A stretch of 64,000 nucleotides of DNA, taken from a virus. Taxonomy: Duplodnaviria; Caudoviricetes. Where the stretch lies: IMG/VR virus record IMGVR_UViG_3300021959_007005. One strand, 5' to 3'. Shown piece by piece: positions 1-9,593 of this stretch (positions within the stretch are counted from its first letter, which is position 1; each line of letters opens with the position of its first letter). The notes under the pieces were generated by a model that saw only the letters and a list, made by a program, of their open reading frames with translations, had not been told where the DNA came from and searched no databases. The translations under genes were made by a program, and so were the position numbers.

Positions 1-518
1 GCAATGACCCAGAAAGTGAAGAAGCACAGGGATGGGACGAAGATGCAGTTGAGGTAGATCCATACCACTTAATGAGTAGAGAATGTTATGCAAATAAAGA
101 AGAGCCTGAAGACTTGGAAGGTTATACTCCTGTATTGTGTTTTCATAGTGGTGAGAAAGGCGGCTTTGGCCAATGGTTTATTGAAACAGACAAACCATTT
201 GATCCTAAAAAACTAGCATACACACAAGTAGAAACAGATTTATGTGAACTAGTAGATGGCATGTACTATGATAAACAACATCTGGAAACTGTCTATGATT
301 ACATGGACTCAACTGGCAAAGGCTACTATGCATATGTAGGCTGGCTTAAAGATGAATGGCACGACACACCAGATGGTATAACTGAAGAACACTGGGAAGA
401 TGTTTGGACAGATTATGATGCTGAAATGGAAGAACTTAAACAACAAGAACGTAAAGAATACGAACAAGCAAGAGCACAAAAGATTGCTGACAATCCTGGA
501 TGGGAACCTGGACAATGA
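1..518 (+). CDS. Acidic hypothetical phage protein, 5' end outside the window
   Basis: The frame of ORF 72..518 stays open back to base 3 (NDPESEEAQGWDEDA...), so the gene starts before the window. No family recognised. Confidence 0.7.
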   Translation, partial: NDPESEEAQGWDEDAVEVDPYHLMSRECYANKEEPEDLEGYTPVLCFHSGEKGGFGQWFIETDKPFDPKKLAYTQVETDLCELVDGMYYDKQHLETVYDYMDSTGKGYYAYVGWLKDEWHDTPDGITEEHWEDVWTDYDAEMEELKQQERKEYEQARAQKIADNPGWEPGQ

Positions 519-2557: not shown

Positions 2558-3649
2558 ATGAACAACTATATCTTTACAAGCGAAAGCGTTAGTGATGGAC
2601 ACCCAGATAAAATAGCAGATCAAATCAGTGATGCACTAGTAGATGCCGGACTAACCAATGGCGACGAAACAACTCGTGTAGCTATTGAAACACTTGTAAC
2701 CACTAACCATGTAACGTTAGCGGGCGAAGTAAAAAACTTTAACGTAAGCAAAGACAAGGTAAAACAAATCGTTCGTGACAAAGTTAAAGAGATTGGTTAT
2801 GAACAAGAAGGATTTCATTGGGATAACTTGCGTATCTACAATGAGATTCACTCACAAAGTGGAGACATTGCGCTAGGCACAGACGACTTTGGTGCAGGAG
2901 ATCAAGGACTAATGTTTGGCTATGCTTGTAATCATACAGACAGTATGATGCCAGCACCTATTCATTACAGCCATGAGATACTAAAGAACTTGAAAAGCAA
3001 ACGTGGTGCTATACTAGGACCAGATGCTAAGAGTCAAGTAAGTGTAGAGTACTATGGTGCTCGAAGAGATGGTATAATTAAACGTATTGACCAAGTTGTA
3101 ATAAGTACTCAGCATACTGAAGGTAATGTAGAGGAAGCTAGACATCTTTGTAAACTTTCAGCAATGGAAGAACTTGGAGATTTAGTGGATGACAACACTA
3201 TATGGCATCTTAATCCTACAGGTAATTTTGTTATCGGTGGTCCTGACGGCGATGCTGGTGTCACAGGAAGAAAGATTATCGTGGACACTTATGGCGGTTT
3301 CGCTCCTCATGGTGGCGGTGCTTTTAGTGGCAAGGATCCTACTAAAGTCGACCGCTCTGCAGCCTATATGGCTCGTTGGCTTGCTAAAAATGTTGTAGCA
3401 GATAATATGGCAGACTGGTGTAATATCCAATTAAGTTATGCTATTGGTGTTAAAGAGCCCACAAGCATTTATGTTGATAGTAACGGGCACAACGCTAGTA
3501 TTGCTAAGTTTATTGAACGTGAGATTGATTTAACTCCAAAAGGAATTATTGACAGATTTGACTTGTTTAACTATACCAACTACAGCAAAAATTGTGTATA
3601 TGGACACTTTGGTGCTAAAGATGTTCCTTGGGAGAAAATTGGATGGTAA
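2558..3649 (+). CDS. metK: S-adenosylmethionine synthetase
   Basis: FTSESVSDGHPDKIADQISDA, GAGDQG, GGPDGDAGVTGRKIIVDTYGG, GGAFSGKDPTKVDRSAAY. Confidence 0.97.
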   Translation: MNNYIFTSESVSDGHPDKIADQISDALVDAGLTNGDETTRVAIETLVTTNHVTLAGEVKNFNVSKDKVKQIVRDKVKEIGYEQEGFHWDNLRIYNEIHSQSGDIALGTDDFGAGDQGLMFGYACNHTDSMMPAPIHYSHEILKNLKSKRGAILGPDAKSQVSVEYYGARRDGIIKRIDQVVISTQHTEGNVEEARHLCKLSAMEELGDLVDDNTIWHLNPTGNFVIGGPDGDAGVTGRKIIVDTYGGFAPHGGGAFSGKDPTKVDRSAAYMARWLAKNVVADNMADWCNIQLSYAIGVKEPTSIYVDSNGHNASIAKFIEREIDLTPKGIIDRFDLFNYTNYSKNCVYGHFGAKDVPWEKIGW

Positions 3650-4863: not shown

Positions 4864-5057
4864 AAAACGCAGAATCGCAACGTATTCAAGATAGCGAAGA
4901 ACGTAGACAAGCTATGAAAAAAGAACGCCGGCAGCAAGAAGGCGAAATTATTCATCAAATTAAACAACCTAAAAAAATATACAAAGGCCGTAGTTTTAGT
5001 GGAATTGAAACTTCTTCAGGTACAGTTAATCGTGGGAAGGATTGGTACTCAAAATGA
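4860..5057 (+). CDS. Small hypothetical protein
   Basis: ATGA overlaps at both ends. Confidence 0.6.
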   Translation: MKNAESQRIQDSEERRQAMKKERRQQEGEIIHQIKQPKKIYKGRSFSGIETSSGTVNRGKDWYSK

Positions 5058-5749
5058 AAAACATTAAAGACGTGCTGTTTATAGTACAAGCAAGGACTAA
5101 TAGTCAACGTGTACCTGCAAAAATGACAAGAGAATTTGCAGGTACTTGTCTATTTGAGATATTCATTAATAAGATTAAACAAACCAATATACCAATGGAA
5201 AACTTTTACGCAAGTGTTTGCGATCAAGAACTTATTGATATATGTAACAAACATGAAGTTAACATATTTAATCGCAGTTTAGCGTCACGCAACAGCGAAA
5301 ATGATTTAGTACAAATGTACGAATGGTGGGACAAATTTCCACAATACAAGTATGTTGTATTATTCAATCCATGTTTGCCATTCTTAAGCGTAAATACTAT
5401 AAATCAGTTTGTAGATCAATATGTTAGTAGTGAGCACGATGGCCTTTTTGGTGTTATGTCTAAAAAGCAATACTATTGGAACACCCAAGGTGAAATGATC
5501 ACACCCTGGCCAGCTGGTGTAACTATTATGAACACCAAAGTAGTAGAACCTACACTTGAAGCTGCACATGCATTATACGCTGGAAGACTTGATCTAATTG
5601 GCCAAGAGCGTTGGATGGGTGACTTTACAAAAAACAATCCTGCACTATTTGAAATGAAAGAGTTCGAATGCCTTGATATTGATTACGAATGGCAATTCGA
5701 AGTATATACAACTTATTGGGAAAAACATTATGGTAAAAACAATAGCTGA
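5054..5749 (+). CDS. neuA: CMP-nonulosonic (sialic-type) acid synthetase / acylneuraminate cytidylyltransferase
   Basis: IVQARTNSQRVPAKM, LFNPCLPF, LDIDYEWQF; directly upstream of NeuB. Confidence 0.8.
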   Translation: MKNIKDVLFIVQARTNSQRVPAKMTREFAGTCLFEIFINKIKQTNIPMENFYASVCDQELIDICNKHEVNIFNRSLASRNSENDLVQMYEWWDKFPQYKYVVLFNPCLPFLSVNTINQFVDQYVSSEHDGLFGVMSKKQYYWNTQGEMITPWPAGVTIMNTKVVEPTLEAAHALYAGRLDLIGQERWMGDFTKNNPALFEMKEFECLDIDYEWQFEVYTTYWEKHYGKNNS

Positions 5750-6539
5750 AATTGGCATCAATCACAACGGTGATTTAGGGTTATGCAAAGAAATGATCAC
5801 ACTCGCAAAAAAAGCAGGTGCTGATTATGTAAAATTTCAAAAGCGTGATCCGAATGTTTGTGTACCAGAAGATCAAAAGTCTAAATTAAGAGATACTCCT
5901 TGGGGAGAAATGACATACCTTGAGTACAAGCATCGTATTGAGTTCAATGACGAGTTTTATGAAATTGATCAACATTGTAAAGAAGTAGGAATCAATTGGT
6001 TTGTAAGTGTATGGGATACAAATAGTATTCAGTTTATGGCTAATAATTTTGATACTAGTATAGTAAAAGTACCAAGTGCAAAAGCCACAGACACTGAAAT
6101 TTTAAATATGTGCAATGCCATATATGGTACAGTAATAGTAAGTACTGGTATGTGTACACTGGAAGAAATTGAACAAATTGTTAGATATGTAGACAAGAAT
6201 AAACTTGTACTAATGCACACTGTAAGTACATATCCAGCAAAGACGGCAGATCTACACATTGACACAATTGATTACTTAAAACGTTATCAGGTTCCTGTTG
6301 GATATAGTGGACATGAGTTGGGTAAATTTATTTCAGCTGCACTTGCTCTAAAGGATATTGACTGGCTAGAGCGTCATTTTACTAGTGACAAAACACTGTG
6401 GGGGACTGATCAAAGTTGTAGCTTAGAAACACACGAACTTAAAGAGCTCATAGGAAATATGCAGATGCTCGAGAAGGCACGTGGTACTAGAGTTGGTGTA
6501 TTAGAATGTGAAATCCCGATACTAGAGAAACTAAGGTAA
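5730..6539 (+). CDS. neuB: Nonulosonic acid synthase (NeuB/SpsE family), lacking the C-terminal SAF domain
   Basis: IAEIGINHNGD, VKFQKR, KVPSA, STGM, MHTVSTYP, GYSGHE, LERHFT. Confidence 0.92.
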   Translation: MVKTIAEIGINHNGDLGLCKEMITLAKKAGADYVKFQKRDPNVCVPEDQKSKLRDTPWGEMTYLEYKHRIEFNDEFYEIDQHCKEVGINWFVSVWDTNSIQFMANNFDTSIVKVPSAKATDTEILNMCNAIYGTVIVSTGMCTLEEIEQIVRYVDKNKLVLMHTVSTYPAKTADLHIDTIDYLKRYQVPVGYSGHELGKFISAALALKDIDWLERHFTSDKTLWGTDQSCSLETHELKELIGNMQMLEKARGTRVGVLECEIPILEKLR

Positions 6540-6549
6540 TTTAGTATAA

Positions 6550-7476
6550 ATGCATTTAAATAGAGATCTGGCAATTTTAATTCCAGGATTAACTTACGGT
6601 GGTAGTAAAAGTTCTGAATTTTTATCACATTGTGAACAAATCACAAATCAACTAAACAAAGGTAACATTAATGATGTTACTTTTTATATTAGTACGTGGG
6701 ATCATAAAAATAATAATACACATGATTTAATAACTGCAATTGAAAATTTTGGTTTTAAGTATAAATTAGATATAGAAACTTATCAAACATTTGATCAAAT
6801 CATACATGAAATAATATATGAAGATATGCCAGAGTTTGGAAAGCTCTGGGACAAATGGCTACACGAAGATTTACTCAAAGCTTCACAATGTTCAGCAGTT
6901 GACTACAAGCGTAGACATCTATCGATATACTATAAATTTTATAAAGTGTTTTATATGACACAACACGAACACCTAATTGTTAGGACCAAATCAAACAACG
7001 GAGTCAATCTACCAATACTAGATCTATTAGATTCTCTAGAAGAAACATTAGAATGGAATCAAACAAACAATAAGTTTAAACAACCTAGTAATTTCAATAA
7101 AGAATTAGGAAACGCAAATGAACTTATTAAATATGATAACTGGATATCATGTAACATTGATGGAGTGAGTAACAATGGTCTTGTAAAAGTCAATGAAAAT
7201 GGAATATTTGGATTAAGACCTGTTTTTGAACACAGGATATTTAACTATAATTCACCTAAGGAATTTATACTTAATGGTATAGCGTCTATATACTATCAGC
7301 AGTTCTTGGATAATTTTACAGCATCACAATTAAATAAAAATTTGTCAATGCCGCCTATAGCTAGTGGTAGTTTAGTGTGGGGTCAATATTTTACTAGCAA
7401 ACGTATACAGATACACCCAGTCTGGGCGTCTGCAAATCCTTTCTCTAAAGATGGACAGGTTCATAAAATGTACTAA
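6550..7476 (+). CDS. Hypothetical protein (possibly glycan-related)
   Basis: 308-aa AT-rich ORF after neuB. No family recognised with certainty. Confidence 0.65.
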   Translation: MHLNRDLAILIPGLTYGGSKSSEFLSHCEQITNQLNKGNINDVTFYISTWDHKNNNTHDLITAIENFGFKYKLDIETYQTFDQIIHEIIYEDMPEFGKLWDKWLHEDLLKASQCSAVDYKRRHLSIYYKFYKVFYMTQHEHLIVRTKSNNGVNLPILDLLDSLEETLEWNQTNNKFKQPSNFNKELGNANELIKYDNWISCNIDGVSNNGLVKVNENGIFGLRPVFEHRIFNYNSPKEFILNGIASIYYQQFLDNFTASQLNKNLSMPPIASGSLVWGQYFTSKRIQIHPVWASANPFSKDGQVHKMY

Positions 7477-7503: not shown

Positions 7504-7538
7504 AGCTCAATTTTTTTTGAGCCAATTTTTTTTAGGCT
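7504..7538 (+). repeat. Tandem imperfect palindromes (GCTCAA-T6-TTGAGC and AGCCAA-T8-AGGCT) in the 5' leader
   Basis: Two ~18-nt units that overlap at 7520-7522 and could form mutually exclusive hairpins. Confidence 0.55.
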
Positions 7539-7564: not shown

Positions 7565-8437
7565 ATGACGCAACTCATAAACCCACGAAAATTTACACAA
7601 ACAGTTGGCCTTTTAAGGTCATTTTTTTTGGACAAAGGATTCTTGGAAGTCCACACCCAAAACAGACTAAGCATACTTGCCGCATGTGAAGATCCATTCA
7701 ATGTAGCAACGTACAATTACGCAGGCAACACTTGGCCACTACCCCAAACAGGCCAGATGTGGTTAGAACATGAATTATTAAGTAGCCCCGATAGTAAGGG
7801 GTTTTTTTGTGTCTCCACTTCCTATAGACAAGAGCCAAATGCTATACCAGGCAGACACGATATTATCTTCCCAATGTTTGAATTTGAAATGCCAGGCAGT
7901 GTAGATGATCTCAAAGCAATGGAAATTGAACTGTGTGAATACTTAGGCTTTGATGCACTAACAGAAAAAACTTACAGAGAATGGCAACAGCATTGGGGTG
8001 TAAGTGCAGACACCGAAATGGATGACAGTCACGAAAAAGCTATGGAAATGAACTTTGGTAGTTGTTTGATTACTGACTTTCCAGAACTAACATCACCTTT
8101 CTGGAACATGGCACGTAACGATGATGGCGAAACTGCCAAGAAGATGGATGTTATACTAGGTGGTATGGAAACTATTGGATCAGCAGAACGCTCGTGTGAT
8201 GTTGATATGATGCGTGATACATTCCATAGCATTGTAGACGGAGAGTACGCAGAGTTGTTATTCAAACTATTCGGTAAAGAACGTGTAGAAGCAGAACTAG
8301 AAGAGTTTCTAAAGTTTGACTTCTTCCAAAGAGTAGGTGGCGGAATTGGTATTACACGTATGATCCCTGCACTAGAAAAAATAAATGCACTAAGTGAGCC
8401 AATGGGTATGATTCAACCCATGCTGCGTTCAGCATAA
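7565..8437 (+). CDS. Class IIb aminoacyl-tRNA synthetase paralog (Asp/Asn-like), catalytic domain only
   Basis: Motif 1 LRSFFLDKGFLEVHT, LPQTGQMWLE, motif 2 SYRQEP..RHD..FPMFEFE, ETIGSAER, motif 3 GGGIGITRM. At 290 aa it has no room for an N-terminal anticodon-binding OB fold. Confidence 0.85.
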   Translation: MTQLINPRKFTQTVGLLRSFFLDKGFLEVHTQNRLSILAACEDPFNVATYNYAGNTWPLPQTGQMWLEHELLSSPDSKGFFCVSTSYRQEPNAIPGRHDIIFPMFEFEMPGSVDDLKAMEIELCEYLGFDALTEKTYREWQQHWGVSADTEMDDSHEKAMEMNFGSCLITDFPELTSPFWNMARNDDGETAKKMDVILGGMETIGSAERSCDVDMMRDTFHSIVDGEYAELLFKLFGKERVEAELEEFLKFDFFQRVGGGIGITRMIPALEKINALSEPMGMIQPMLRSA

Positions 8438-8444
8438 AGTTTAT

Positions 8445-8547
8445 TCCAGCCTGGTGGAAATGGTAGACACGGCGGACTGTTTATCCGTTGATTAATAACT
8501 CGCAAAGTATTTAATCGTGCATGGTTCGAATCCTGCGGCTGGAGCCA
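8445..8547 (+). tRNA. trnN: tRNA-Asn(GUU) with a 30-nt variable region (class II-like), CCA encoded
   Basis: Acceptor TCCAGCC/GGCTGGA, discriminator G, CCA. D-arm GTG-GAAATGGTAGA-CAC. Anticodon stem GCGGA/TCCGT with loop CT-GTT-TA. T-loop TTCGAAT. Confidence 0.85.
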
Positions 8548-8556
8548 AAACAAAAC

Positions 8557-8585
8557 TTGACAATACCCTCGATTGTTGCTATTAT
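8557..8585 (+). promoter_or_regulatory. sigma70-type early promoter
   Basis: TTGACA-N17-TATTAT upstream of rnh. Confidence 0.8.
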
Positions 8586-8612
8586 AGGTAGATAAACAAT
8601 TGAGGGTTATTC

Positions 8613-9593
8613 ATGACATATATTCTAGTAGACACAGCAAACATGTTTTTTCGTGCAAGGCATGTAGTACGTGGAGATGATATTGATACCAAAATTGGTA
8701 TGGCATATCACATTATGTTTGCAAGTATTTTAAAAGCATATAGAGACTTTAACGGCAGTCATGTTGTATTCTGTTTAGAAGGACGCAGTTGGCGTAAAGA
8801 CTTTTATGAGCCTTACAAAGCTAATCGCAAAGTAGCTCGTGATGCACTTACTCCTAAGGAAGAGGAAGAAGATAAGGCATATTGGGAAGCATTTGACAAT
8901 CTTAAAGAGTTTATGGAAACTCGAACAAATTGCACAGTACTGCAACACAAACAATGTGAAGCAGATGACTTTATTGCTCGTTGGATACAGAATCATCCTG
9001 ATGATGAACATGTTATTATTAGTAGCGATAGTGACTTTTATCAGTTACTCACAGACAAAGTAACACAGTACAATGGAATTAGTAATCAGCATATTAAAAT
9101 AGATGGCGTTGTAAATGATCGTGGCAAGCCTGTAATTGACAAGAAAACTAAAGAGCAAAAACAAATTGGTGATCCCAGTTGGTTGCTGTTTGAAAAGTGT
9201 ATGAGAGGCGATAGCAGTGATAACGTGTTTAGTGCTTTTCCAGGTGTTCGTAAAAAAGGTACAAAAAACAAAGTTGGTCTACTTGAGGCATTTGCTGATA
9301 AAGATGCAAAAGGCTTTGACTGGAACAATATGATGCTACAACGTTGGGTGGATCATAATGGTGATGAACATCGAGTACTAGATGATTATCTACGTAATGT
9401 AACTCTAGTTGATCTCACACAACAACCTGACGACATTAAAGTAGCATTGGATGATGTTATCACTTCACAAGTACAGGCTACTCCAGTTAGTGGTGTAGGT
9501 ATTCATTTTATGCGGTTTTGTGGAACATATGATTTACAACGTATCAGCGATAACTCTCAAGCACATGCAGAATATTTAAATGCAGCCTACTGA
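8613..9593 (+). CDS. rnh: T4-like RNase H / 5'-3' exonuclease (FEN family)
   Basis: ILVDTANMFFR, WRKDFY..YKANR, EADDFIA, IISSDSDFYQL, GDSSDNV..FPGV. Confidence 0.92.
   Translation: MTYILVDTANMFFRARHVVRGDDIDTKIGMAYHIMFASILKAYRDFNGSHVVFCLEGRSWRKDFYEPYKANRKVARDALTPKEEEEDKAYWEAFDNLKEFMETRTNCTVLQHKQCEADDFIARWIQNHPDDEHVIISSDSDFYQLLTDKVTQYNGISNQHIKIDGVVNDRGKPVIDKKTKEQKQIGDPSWLLFEKCMRGDSSDNVFSAFPGVRKKGTKNKVGLLEAFADKDAKGFDWNNMMLQRWVDHNGDEHRVLDDYLRNVTLVDLTQQPDDIKVALDDVITSQVQATPVSGVGIHFMRFCGTYDLQRISDNSQAHAEYLNAAY

Follow-up and report, generated by a model that had tools for sequence, protein, structure and literature searches.

The locus at positions 8445-8547 of a 64,000-nucleotide stretch of the virus record IMGVR_UViG_3300021959_007005 (Duplodnaviria; Caudoviricetes), the whole of which is called the window in the following, raises the question of what a phage does with a transfer RNA (tRNA) that has the asparagine anticodon GUU together with a long variable arm, a uridine at position 37 and a bulged T stem. 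It is found that the element is, as judged by comparison with its relatives, a real and structurally constrained tRNA under selection, that it keeps the features by which a bacterial tRNA-Asn is recognised for charging, and that in the sampled phage loci it is coupled reciprocally with the gene of an enzyme resembling the catalytic core of asparaginyl-tRNA synthetase (AsnRS). The reading that we favour, tentatively and as something short of probable, is that the tRNA is a private asparagine carrier for this AsnRS-derived enzyme and not a routine decoder.

By direct reading of window 8300-8700, in which the positions were checked, the tRNA is composed as follows.

8445-8547, plus strand: tRNA(GUU), 103 nt including the encoded CCA, of class-II shape, with U1-A72 and G73
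8445-8451 with 8537-8543, plus strand: acceptor stem, from sequence reading
8472-8476 with 8484-8488, plus strand: anticodon stem, from sequence reading
8477-8483, plus strand: anticodon loop CUGUUUA, with C32, U33, G34 U35 U36, U37 (8482) and A38
8489-8518, plus strand: variable arm of 30 nt, a two-part hairpin
8519-8536, plus strand: T arm, with stem GCA(U8522)GG/CCUGC and the bulged U at 8522
8544, plus strand: discriminator G73
8545-8547, plus strand: encoded CCA

The same reading gives a D stem of 3 bp (GTG/CAC) and the pairs C2-G71 and U11-A24, and the acceptor/T geometry is 7/5. In the variable-arm hairpin, a 6-bp outer helix (8490-8495/8511-8516) is followed by a 2x2 internal loop, and the tip is formed by a 3-bp inner helix (8498-8500/8506-8508) with the loop CGCAA. 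The description given in the first-pass annotation, a tRNA with GUU, a 30-nt variable arm, U37, a bulged T stem and a D arm of the Leu/Ser type, is thus borne out in every feature and at every position, the 3-bp D stem being Leu-like. The check by ARAGORN that it advised did not call the element, since ARAGORN reports no tRNA anywhere in the window, and Rfam with default fast filters at the gathering threshold finds no tRNA in the window either; it is Rfam RF00005 with lax filters that gives a match instead, with 38.7 bits compared with a gathering score of 29 (E=6e-7, model positions 1-71). The misses by ARAGORN and by the fast-filter Rfam search are detection failures arising from the 30-nt arm and the bulge and do not mean absence. 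Because the single-sequence fold energy of the tRNA is unremarkable (not significant, z=-1.0), the case for function rests on the comparison with relatives.

The relatives, which include a clade to which the window belongs and a cyanophage clade, show the structure to be maintained. RNAalifold on 46 distinct homologues returns the cloverleaf, with compensatory changes in 17 of the 24 pairs. In counts taken from extractions that did not require the features concerned, U1-A72, G73, G34 U35 U36, the 3-bp D stem and a base-paired variable arm are constant across the homologues; U8, A14, G18 G19 and the TTCGA T loop are also invariant in the alignment, and the D loop of the aligned sequences reads GGTA, with no supernumerary base (no U20a) after G18 G19. 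The T-stem bulge is limited to the window and its four closest relatives (L004, L005, L006 and L009). In this subclade pair 50-64 went from G-C to C-G and the acceptor pair 7-66 also switched, and because both pairs switched in a compensatory manner the bulge-subclade tRNA is still under structural selection. These data bear on the possibility that the element is a decaying pseudogene that is kept as an RNase P processing element or as a 3'-end stabilising element of the enzyme mRNA. The near-fixed spacer of 4-12 nt between the enzyme gene and the tRNA, the failure of ARAGORN, the bulged T stem and U37 would be understandable for such a remnant, but compensatory changes are present in every stem, including those of the window subclade (acceptor 7-66 and T-stem 50-64), and the anticodon, the discriminator and the 1-72 pair, which are needless for a processing signal, are invariant, making this explanation very improbable.

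The anticodon flanks and the length of the variable arm change much. Among 139 distinct tRNAs, which make up the spectrum of loop variants, position 37 is U in 119, A in 15, C in 5 and G in 0, i.e. a pyrimidine in 124/139, and U37 is present in every tRNA of the cyanophage clade. Position 33 is C in 9 of the 139, in all of which the 5 bp of the anticodon stem are intact and the loop has 7 nt, while position 32 is C or U and position 38 is A or C. The variable region in the same set is mostly 11-33 nt long, with outliers to 43 nt. A class-II arm is universal, with a 27-32-nt form alternating with 13-17-nt forms, and in its long form the arm folds into a hairpin that reaches 12 bp, with the loop C(N)GCAA and an outer helix that covaries. 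On the tree of the enzymes position 37 has switched at least 9-10 times, and near-identical enzymes adjoin tRNAs with long (27-32 nt) or short (13-17 nt) arms, for example in loci L041 and L045. Recognition of the distal part of the arm by the enzyme was considered and is ruled out, as near-identical enzymes pair with 13-nt and with 28-nt arms. It was anticipated in the first-pass annotation that the extra arm or U37, if sporadic among close homologues, would point to decay or sequencing error. U37 proves not to be sporadic, yet it flips to A or C; the long arm recurs but is dispensable; and the bulge is local to its subclade.

The features on which the U-turn, the reading of codons and the binding of EF-Tu depend include U33, a purine at position 37 and a regular T stem. 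The window tRNA has G34 U35 U36, G73 and U1-A72 and has no U20a, all of which belong to asparagine identity, while it departs from a class I tRNA-Asn in its 30-nt arm, its 3-bp D stem and U37. The set that stays constant in the family is, as read from the alignment, the charging identity of a bacterial tRNA-Asn, with the decoding-critical features apparently relaxed. It was reported that the identity for AsnRS is the anticodon and G73, that the identity for the non-discriminating aspartyl-tRNA synthetase (AspRS) is the anticodon, and that t6A37 is an antideterminant against AspRS (PMC9976931). U1-A72 without U20a is a determinant for GatCAB (PMC1635274), and G73 is an antideterminant for LeuRS and TyrRS, as is C2-G71 for SerRS (PMC9976931). 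The marks of tRNA-Leu, tRNA-Tyr and tRNA-Ser are missing from the window tRNA, which has G73 in place of A73, and C2-G71 and U11-A24 in place of G2-C71 and C11-G24; mis-charging with Leu, Tyr or Ser is unlikely because G73 and C2-G71 act as antideterminants.

One of the three roles suggested in the first-pass annotation, that of a Leu- or Ser-type body with a switched anticodon, loses most of its ground here. A body of the Leu, Ser or Tyr type would be charged by the host SerRS, LeuRS or TyrRS and would mis-decode asparagine codons. Such an origin would account for the class-II arm and for the Leu-like 3-bp D arm, and the tRNAs of the cyanophage clade do bear G2-C71 and C11-G24, which are Ser-like marks. 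However, G73 excludes LeuRS and TyrRS, the C2-G71 of the window clade is anti-SerRS (PMC9976931) and goes with U11-A24, the combination of U1-A72, G73 and GUU is the asparagine identity set, and a global replacement of asparagine by serine would damage the phage's own asparagine-rich proteome. We consider this role scarcely credible.

The tRNA does not stand alone, and its setting, which the first-pass annotation did not take into account, proves decisive. It is the second member of a two-gene unit, the boundaries and parts of which in the window are the following.

7505-7522, plus strand: terminator-like hairpin closing the upstream gene, the 5' boundary of the unit
7565-8437, plus strand: AsnRS-type catalytic core of 290 aa, class IIb, the upstream partner of the tRNA
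8438-8444, plus strand: spacer of 7 nt, from the enzyme stop codon to tRNA nucleotide 1
8557-8585, plus strand: sigma-70-like promoter, TTGACA-17-TATTAT, with 11/12 matches, the 3' boundary of the unit

The promoter-like sequence at 8557-8585, a strong one, would serve the next gene, a 5'-3' exonuclease (open reading frame (ORF) 8613-9593, PF02739). More than 150 marine phage loci contain the enzyme-tRNA unit, and at least ~600 loci are found in IMG/VR for each of the two clades. In the window clade the tRNA is present in 76 of the 77 IMG/VR loci having enough sequence, with a spacer of 4-10 nt (78 loci). In the cyanophage clade it is present in ~74 loci, with a spacer of 7-12 nt in ~71. The Prochlorococcus phages P-SSM7, P-SSM2 and P-SSM5 have the enzyme gene followed by an 85-86-nt class-II tRNA that is annotated as 'tRNA-Asn'. 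When IMG/VR was searched in reverse with a pattern of the tRNA only, 78 new loci were obtained, in 75 of which the sequence is usable, the remaining 3 being cut off by a contig end, and the enzyme lies directly upstream in 75/75. Because the search from gene to tRNA and that from tRNA to gene agree, the coupling is reciprocal in the sampled phage loci. The genes flanking the unit vary between loci. A metatranscriptomic-library contig spans 7501-8561 without a mismatch and bridges the gene and the tRNA, which indicates presence only, as such contigs are assembled and DNA carry-over is possible; in another run a contig ends at 8435 and leaves the tRNA uncovered, and the uncovered part is not used as evidence.

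Some single observations on the unit are added. The only clear exception in spacing is L176 (1743-1915), a phage-like contig where the enzyme gene and its tRNA are separated by ~170 nt that include a small ORF. In the window, the last codons of the enzyme, just before the stop, can form a hairpin of 6 bp with a loop of 4 nt (8420-8435, ATGCTG-CGTT-CAGCAT). The region before the enzyme, window 5042-7476, encodes a cytidylyltransferase, NeuB and a 308-aa protein without a family match, and in P-SSM2 a cytidylyltransferase is also located 2 kb upstream of its copy of the enzyme.

What, then, is the enzyme? ORF 7565-8437 matches PF00152 at 4e-16 and starts at the catalytic core, having no N-terminal OB-fold anticodon-binding domain. 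Its AF2 model, with a pLDDT of 94, consists of the catalytic domain only, and the best Foldseek matches of the model are the catalytic domains of AsnRS and AspRS. A profile of 41 diverse family members gives AsnRS as the best match in the PDB (2.8e-14) and AspRS as the second, whereas the archaeal AS-AR 3p8t reaches only 1.2e-5 over a partial length and EpmA 1e-4. The score with TIGR00457 (asnS) is 33 bits, below the cut-off of 343. Identity with the archaeal asparagine synthetase AS-AR/AsnA was tried and rejected, with 19.7 bits for NF005055 compared with a cut-off of 389. Class II motifs 2 and 3 are intact, the ATP and Mg residues are all conserved, and R88, E90, R97/H98, E106, E108, E202, R209, R265 and L67 are conserved to at least 90%. 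In the alignment L67/E68 correspond to the 'LE' of AsnRS, where AspRS has 'KQ', and E106 corresponds to the Glu of AsnRS, where AspRS has Asp; R209 is conserved. Since in AsnRS the amide is recognised by Glu, Arg and a water molecule that Leu holds in place, and AspRS relies on Lys and Arg instead (PMC7387524), these matches lead us to call the amino-acid pocket AsnRS-like (Leu, Glu, Arg), as predicted from the alignment. Note also that, because the enzyme is without an anticodon-binding domain, the invariant GUU needs either the ribosome or a host synthetase that reads the anticodon.

The enzyme family, which comprises 173 clusters at 50% identity with E<1e-30, extends beyond the phages with this unit. 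The more distant viral members have no tRNA adjoining the enzyme gene. A scan of species-representative genomes gives cellular orthologues that are 43-60% identical and have the same motifs, in Bacteroidota, Chlamydiae, Dependentiae, CPR bacteria, DPANN archaea and Alphaproteobacteria, some of them on megabase contigs. Cellular members are named 'transposase' or 'amino acid--tRNA ligase-related protein' in NCBI/nr (L217, L183 and L225 among them), the former being an evident case of propagated mis-annotation. About 95 residues are conserved to at least 90% when the two phage clades and the cellular group are taken together, and the group-specific differences are only V/I, M/L, C/L and I/L; because so many residues are shared and the differences are only conservative, the phage and the cellular enzymes very probably catalyse the same reaction. 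Full-length asnS is also present in 4 of 5 cellular genomes carrying the family, for which reason the family is not the housekeeping AsnRS.

The cellular distribution points to pyrimidine synthesis. pyrB is over the cut-off in 0/7 family-positive genomes and in 14/14 controls, and, in family-negative genomes of the same order or family, in 4/4 and 48/59 (52/63); pyrC is over the cut-off in 0/5 family-positive genomes. The enzyme gene adjoins DHO_dh in three unrelated settings, of which one is a Chitinophagales chromosome and the others are viral contigs. The phage record itself has a DHO_dh-like gene and a phosphoribosyltransferase gene ~8 kb upstream of the enzyme, and one relative of the phage also has DHO_dh. 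From these data we infer, with moderate confidence, a metabolic function of the enzyme in the pyrimidine pathway, where it would act on an asparagine-like substrate and ATP.

It is noted that the DHO_dh-family protein (230 aa, 45 bits) and the phosphoribosyltransferase (186 aa) following it are encoded at record C1:175104-176349, 0.3-1.5 kb before the window, and that L254 1105-2350, minus strand, gives the coordinates of the same region. After the phosphoribosyltransferase there is a 266-aa ORF without a family match, running into window 1-518, and the three together may be a phage pyrD-pyrE(-pyrF?) set. Further observations concern single loci of the family. In a metagenome-assembled genome of Absconditabacterales (L220 1986-2780) the table-11 reading stops after 20 codons while tblastn aligns residues 10-270, which is consistent with UGA being read as Gly (code 25) in that lineage. 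Locus L247 has a canonical tRNA-Asn of 73 nt (3021-3093) that follows a cellular orthologue (43% identical) at a distance of ~200 nt, past a rho-independent terminator; this single case is probably a coincidence, though the acceptor stem resembles those of the phage tRNAs. At L090 3437-4069 a distant member stands beside pyrD and pyrF/E and adjoins a gene with a faint RING-finger match, which suggests that a virus of eukaryotes also carries the enzyme.

With the enzyme thus described, it can be asked whether enzyme and tRNA form a private (orthogonal) pair for translation, in which this mini-AsnRS would charge the tRNA with asparagine, recognising it through U1-A72, G73 and the class-II body, and AAU and AAC would be decoded independently of the host. 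Class II synthetases approach the tRNA from the variable-arm side, and the long arm could keep the host AsnRS or AspRS away and so make a domain-less enzyme necessary. The reciprocal linkage is like that of pylS-pylT, the pocket is of the AsnRS type with intact catalytic motifs, and, as given below, asparagine codons are frequent in the phage record and no other tRNA-Asn is encoded in it. However, an enzyme having no anticodon reader leaves the invariant GUU unexplained unless decoding explains it, and U33 and the purine at position 37, both decoding-critical, are not conserved. Near-identical enzymes occur beside short-arm or long-arm tRNAs, and no phage-specific residues suggest a gained binding of tRNA. 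Moreover, the cellular orthologues, having the same active-site residues, coexist with a full AsnRS, are without the tRNA, and track the absence of pyrB. A pair serving translation is therefore held to be unlikely.

We propose instead that the tRNA is a private asparagine carrier. In this model, the invariant GUU would be read by class IIb enzymes of the host, either by AsnRS or by the non-discriminating AspRS followed by GatCAB, and these host enzymes would load the tRNA with asparagine, the GatCAB route needing U1-A72. The AsnRS-type active site of the neighbouring enzyme would then dock on the asparagine-bearing CCA end, and the enzyme would use the tRNA-bound asparagine for its own reaction, probably in the synthesis of the pyrimidine ring. 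The carrier would matter in hosts that make asparagine only on tRNA; if this premise holds, it would be because of such hosts that only the phage enzymes need the tRNA. The long arm, U37 and the bulge would be either tolerated or of help in excluding the tRNA from translation. The carrier reading would explain the reciprocal linkage and also the conservation of the charging identity together with the relaxed decoding features. Among the three options of the first-pass annotation, it is the non-translational tRNA that fits best, so that the interpretation given there is supported in part.

A more specific form of the model, which we regard as doubtful, is that asparagine on the private tRNA, loaded by the host's non-discriminating AspRS and GatCAB, is the substrate of the enzyme for closing the pyrimidine ring. 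Asparagine, CO2 and ATP would give dihydroorotate or a similar product, bypassing aspartate carbamoyltransferase and dihydroorotase. If this is true, a tRNA carrier would operate in nucleotide biosynthesis and would be brought by phages into hosts without a free asparagine pool.

Several observations weigh against the carrier. Asn makes up 6.55% of the phage codons, 68% of them AAT, which fits a decoder; in the 198-kb record (36% GC, 55% complete) there are six other tRNAs matching AT-rich codons, none of them a tRNA-Asn; and the unit is often near other phage tRNA genes. The tRNA itself keeps the canonical tertiary nucleotides (U8, A14, G18 G19 and TTCGA) and, in the window clade, the encoded CCA, both in the manner of a decoder, and the canonical asparagine loop CUGUUAA is present in 11-20% of the family tRNAs. 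The odd tRNA is absent beside the cellular orthologues, only mis-binned phage contigs carrying one, and a dedicated tRNA is evidently not needed for the orthologues to work. With a net charge of ~-20 the phage enzymes are strongly acidic, and the comparison of phage and cellular enzymes gives no phage-specific basic residues. As regards the pyrimidine pathway, the hypergeometric p of ~7e-6 for the pyrB anticorrelation is uncorrected and its positives are 7 genomes of ~5 lineages, two of the 7 pyrB-negative positives are chlamydiae, which may lack the pathway anyway, and neither P-SSM2 nor P-SSM7 encodes a DHO_dh.

The decoder-like features among these give their strength to another explanation, according to which the element is an ordinary supply tRNA-Asn hitch-hiking with a metabolic gene. 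It would be charged by the host and would decode AAY, with the flanks of the anticodon at 32, 33, 37 and 38 selected for evading anticodon nucleases or a modification-dependent attack. A constant anticodon between flanks that differ among the members and have flipped many times agrees with this explanation, as do the heavy use of asparagine codons, the six other tRNAs that match the AT-rich codons, the tertiary nucleotides and the encoded CCA. It leaves unexplained, however, why the tRNA always stays with the enzyme gene although other phage tRNAs change places around it, and why the class-II body is universal. Pyrimidine 37 and C33 are, as is well established, almost unheard of in working elongator tRNAs, and no nuclease targeting tRNA-Asn is known in these hosts. 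A fixed anticodon with mutated flanks is the pattern that was proposed for nuclease-insensitive phage tRNAs (PMC10264068), and the nuclease-resistant replacement tRNA of the first-pass annotation is kept here as a competitor for that reason, but with the linkage and the class-II body outside its reach we rate the hitch-hiking decoder as rather unlikely.

Two further aspects of the phage genome should be considered. The record, at its 55% completeness, contains no AsnB-type asparagine synthase and no asnS. It does have deazaguanine genes and a Vut_1 transporter nearby, and these bring in the possibility that the tRNA is a substrate of base modification by the logic of GluQ-RS, where TGT-like or deazaguanine enzymes would modify G34 and the AsnRS-like core would acylate the modified base. 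U33-G34-U35 is indeed the TGT recognition element, but this UGU element is destroyed in the nine distinct members having C33, and the cellular orthologues exist without such a tRNA, so that we give this possibility hardly any weight.

Outside the window, ARAGORN reports a 90-nt tRNA-Ser with the anticodon ACT (A34) at record C1:826-915 (L064 7661-7750). A tRNA-Ser with A34 is unusual in bacteria. AGT is by far the commonest serine codon of the phage, with 2235 of ~4400.

Whichever role is correct, the element is a natural class-II tRNA with predicted asparagine identity, in which position 37 is a pyrimidine and position 33 is C in some members, so that several near-universal rules for tRNAs are broken under selection, and it is abundant in the ocean, as the IMG/VR loci counted above for each clade and protein clusters numbering in the thousands indicate. 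The coupling would offer either an orthogonal pair ready-made by nature or the first example of a tRNA set aside for a metabolic enzyme that serves nucleotide synthesis, and the carrier mechanism, if true, would be categorically new. In several bacterial lineages the enzyme family, which is unannotated, seems to take the place of pyrB and pyrC, and if so it would represent a new pyrimidine route. Cultured systems exist in P-SSM2 and P-SSM7 on Prochlorococcus, with which the proposals can be tested directly.

Full-text literature searches gave no paper describing the enzyme-tRNA pair. The gene in P-SSM2 and P-SSM7 was listed by Sullivan et al. (2010) as 'tRNA ligase' with no comment, and the GenBank label of the P-SSM7, P-SSM2 and P-SSM5 tRNA is tRNA-Asn.

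It is useful to compare the pair with systems that are known. The phage tRNA is like bacterial tRNA-Asn in GUU, G73 and U1-A72, and a minority of the family also has the loop CUGUUAA; the anticodon stem in the window, GCGGA/UCCGU, is what we take to be that of E. coli tRNA-Asn. It is unlike bacterial tRNA-Asn in having an arm of 13-32 nt compared with 5 nt, a 3-bp D stem, U or C at position 37 compared with t6A37, C33 in some members, the T-stem bulge of the window clade, and the link to an enzyme. With the class II tRNAs (Leu, Ser, bacterial Tyr and Sec) it shares the long base-paired variable arm and the short D stem, and with the allo-tRNAs a class-II body bearing an unexpected anticodon (PMC5389517). 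It differs from both in the acceptor/T geometry, 7/5 instead of 8/4 or 9/3, and in the asparagine identity elements, and the arm, of up to 11-12 bp, is longer than is usual in class II tRNAs.

The tRNAs that carry amino acids for purposes other than decoding, namely the tRNA-Asn/Gln of the transamidosome, the Glu-tRNA of haem synthesis and the non-proteinogenic tRNA-Gly of Staphylococcus, similarly keep their charging while the features for EF-Tu and the ribosome are relaxed. None of them, however, is genetically welded to a synthetase-derived enzyme, and the carrier role of the phage tRNA is a proposal. To our knowledge, Asn-tRNA has no role beyond translation. The enzyme, for its part, is comparable with the domain-less synthetase paralogues (AS-AR/AsnA, EpmA/PoxA, GluQ-RS and HisZ) in being a class IIb core alone of ~280 aa with motifs 2 and 3, while its profile is nearer to AsnRS than to AS-AR or EpmA and its pocket is AsnRS-like. 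We know of no domain-less synthetase paralogue that carries a dedicated tRNA gene.

As systems in which the tRNA and its setting can be compared together, two remain. In pylS-pylT the genes of an enzyme and of a special tRNA are also adjacent and co-inherited, but PylRS ignores the anticodon and its tRNA recodes a stop, whereas here the anticodon is an invariant sense anticodon and charging by the enzyme is putative. In the phage tRNAs with mutated anticodon loops (PMC10264068) the anticodon is likewise fixed and the flanks are mutated, but these tRNAs are otherwise ordinary, being neither class-II chimeras nor tied to an enzyme as the tRNA of the window and its relatives are.

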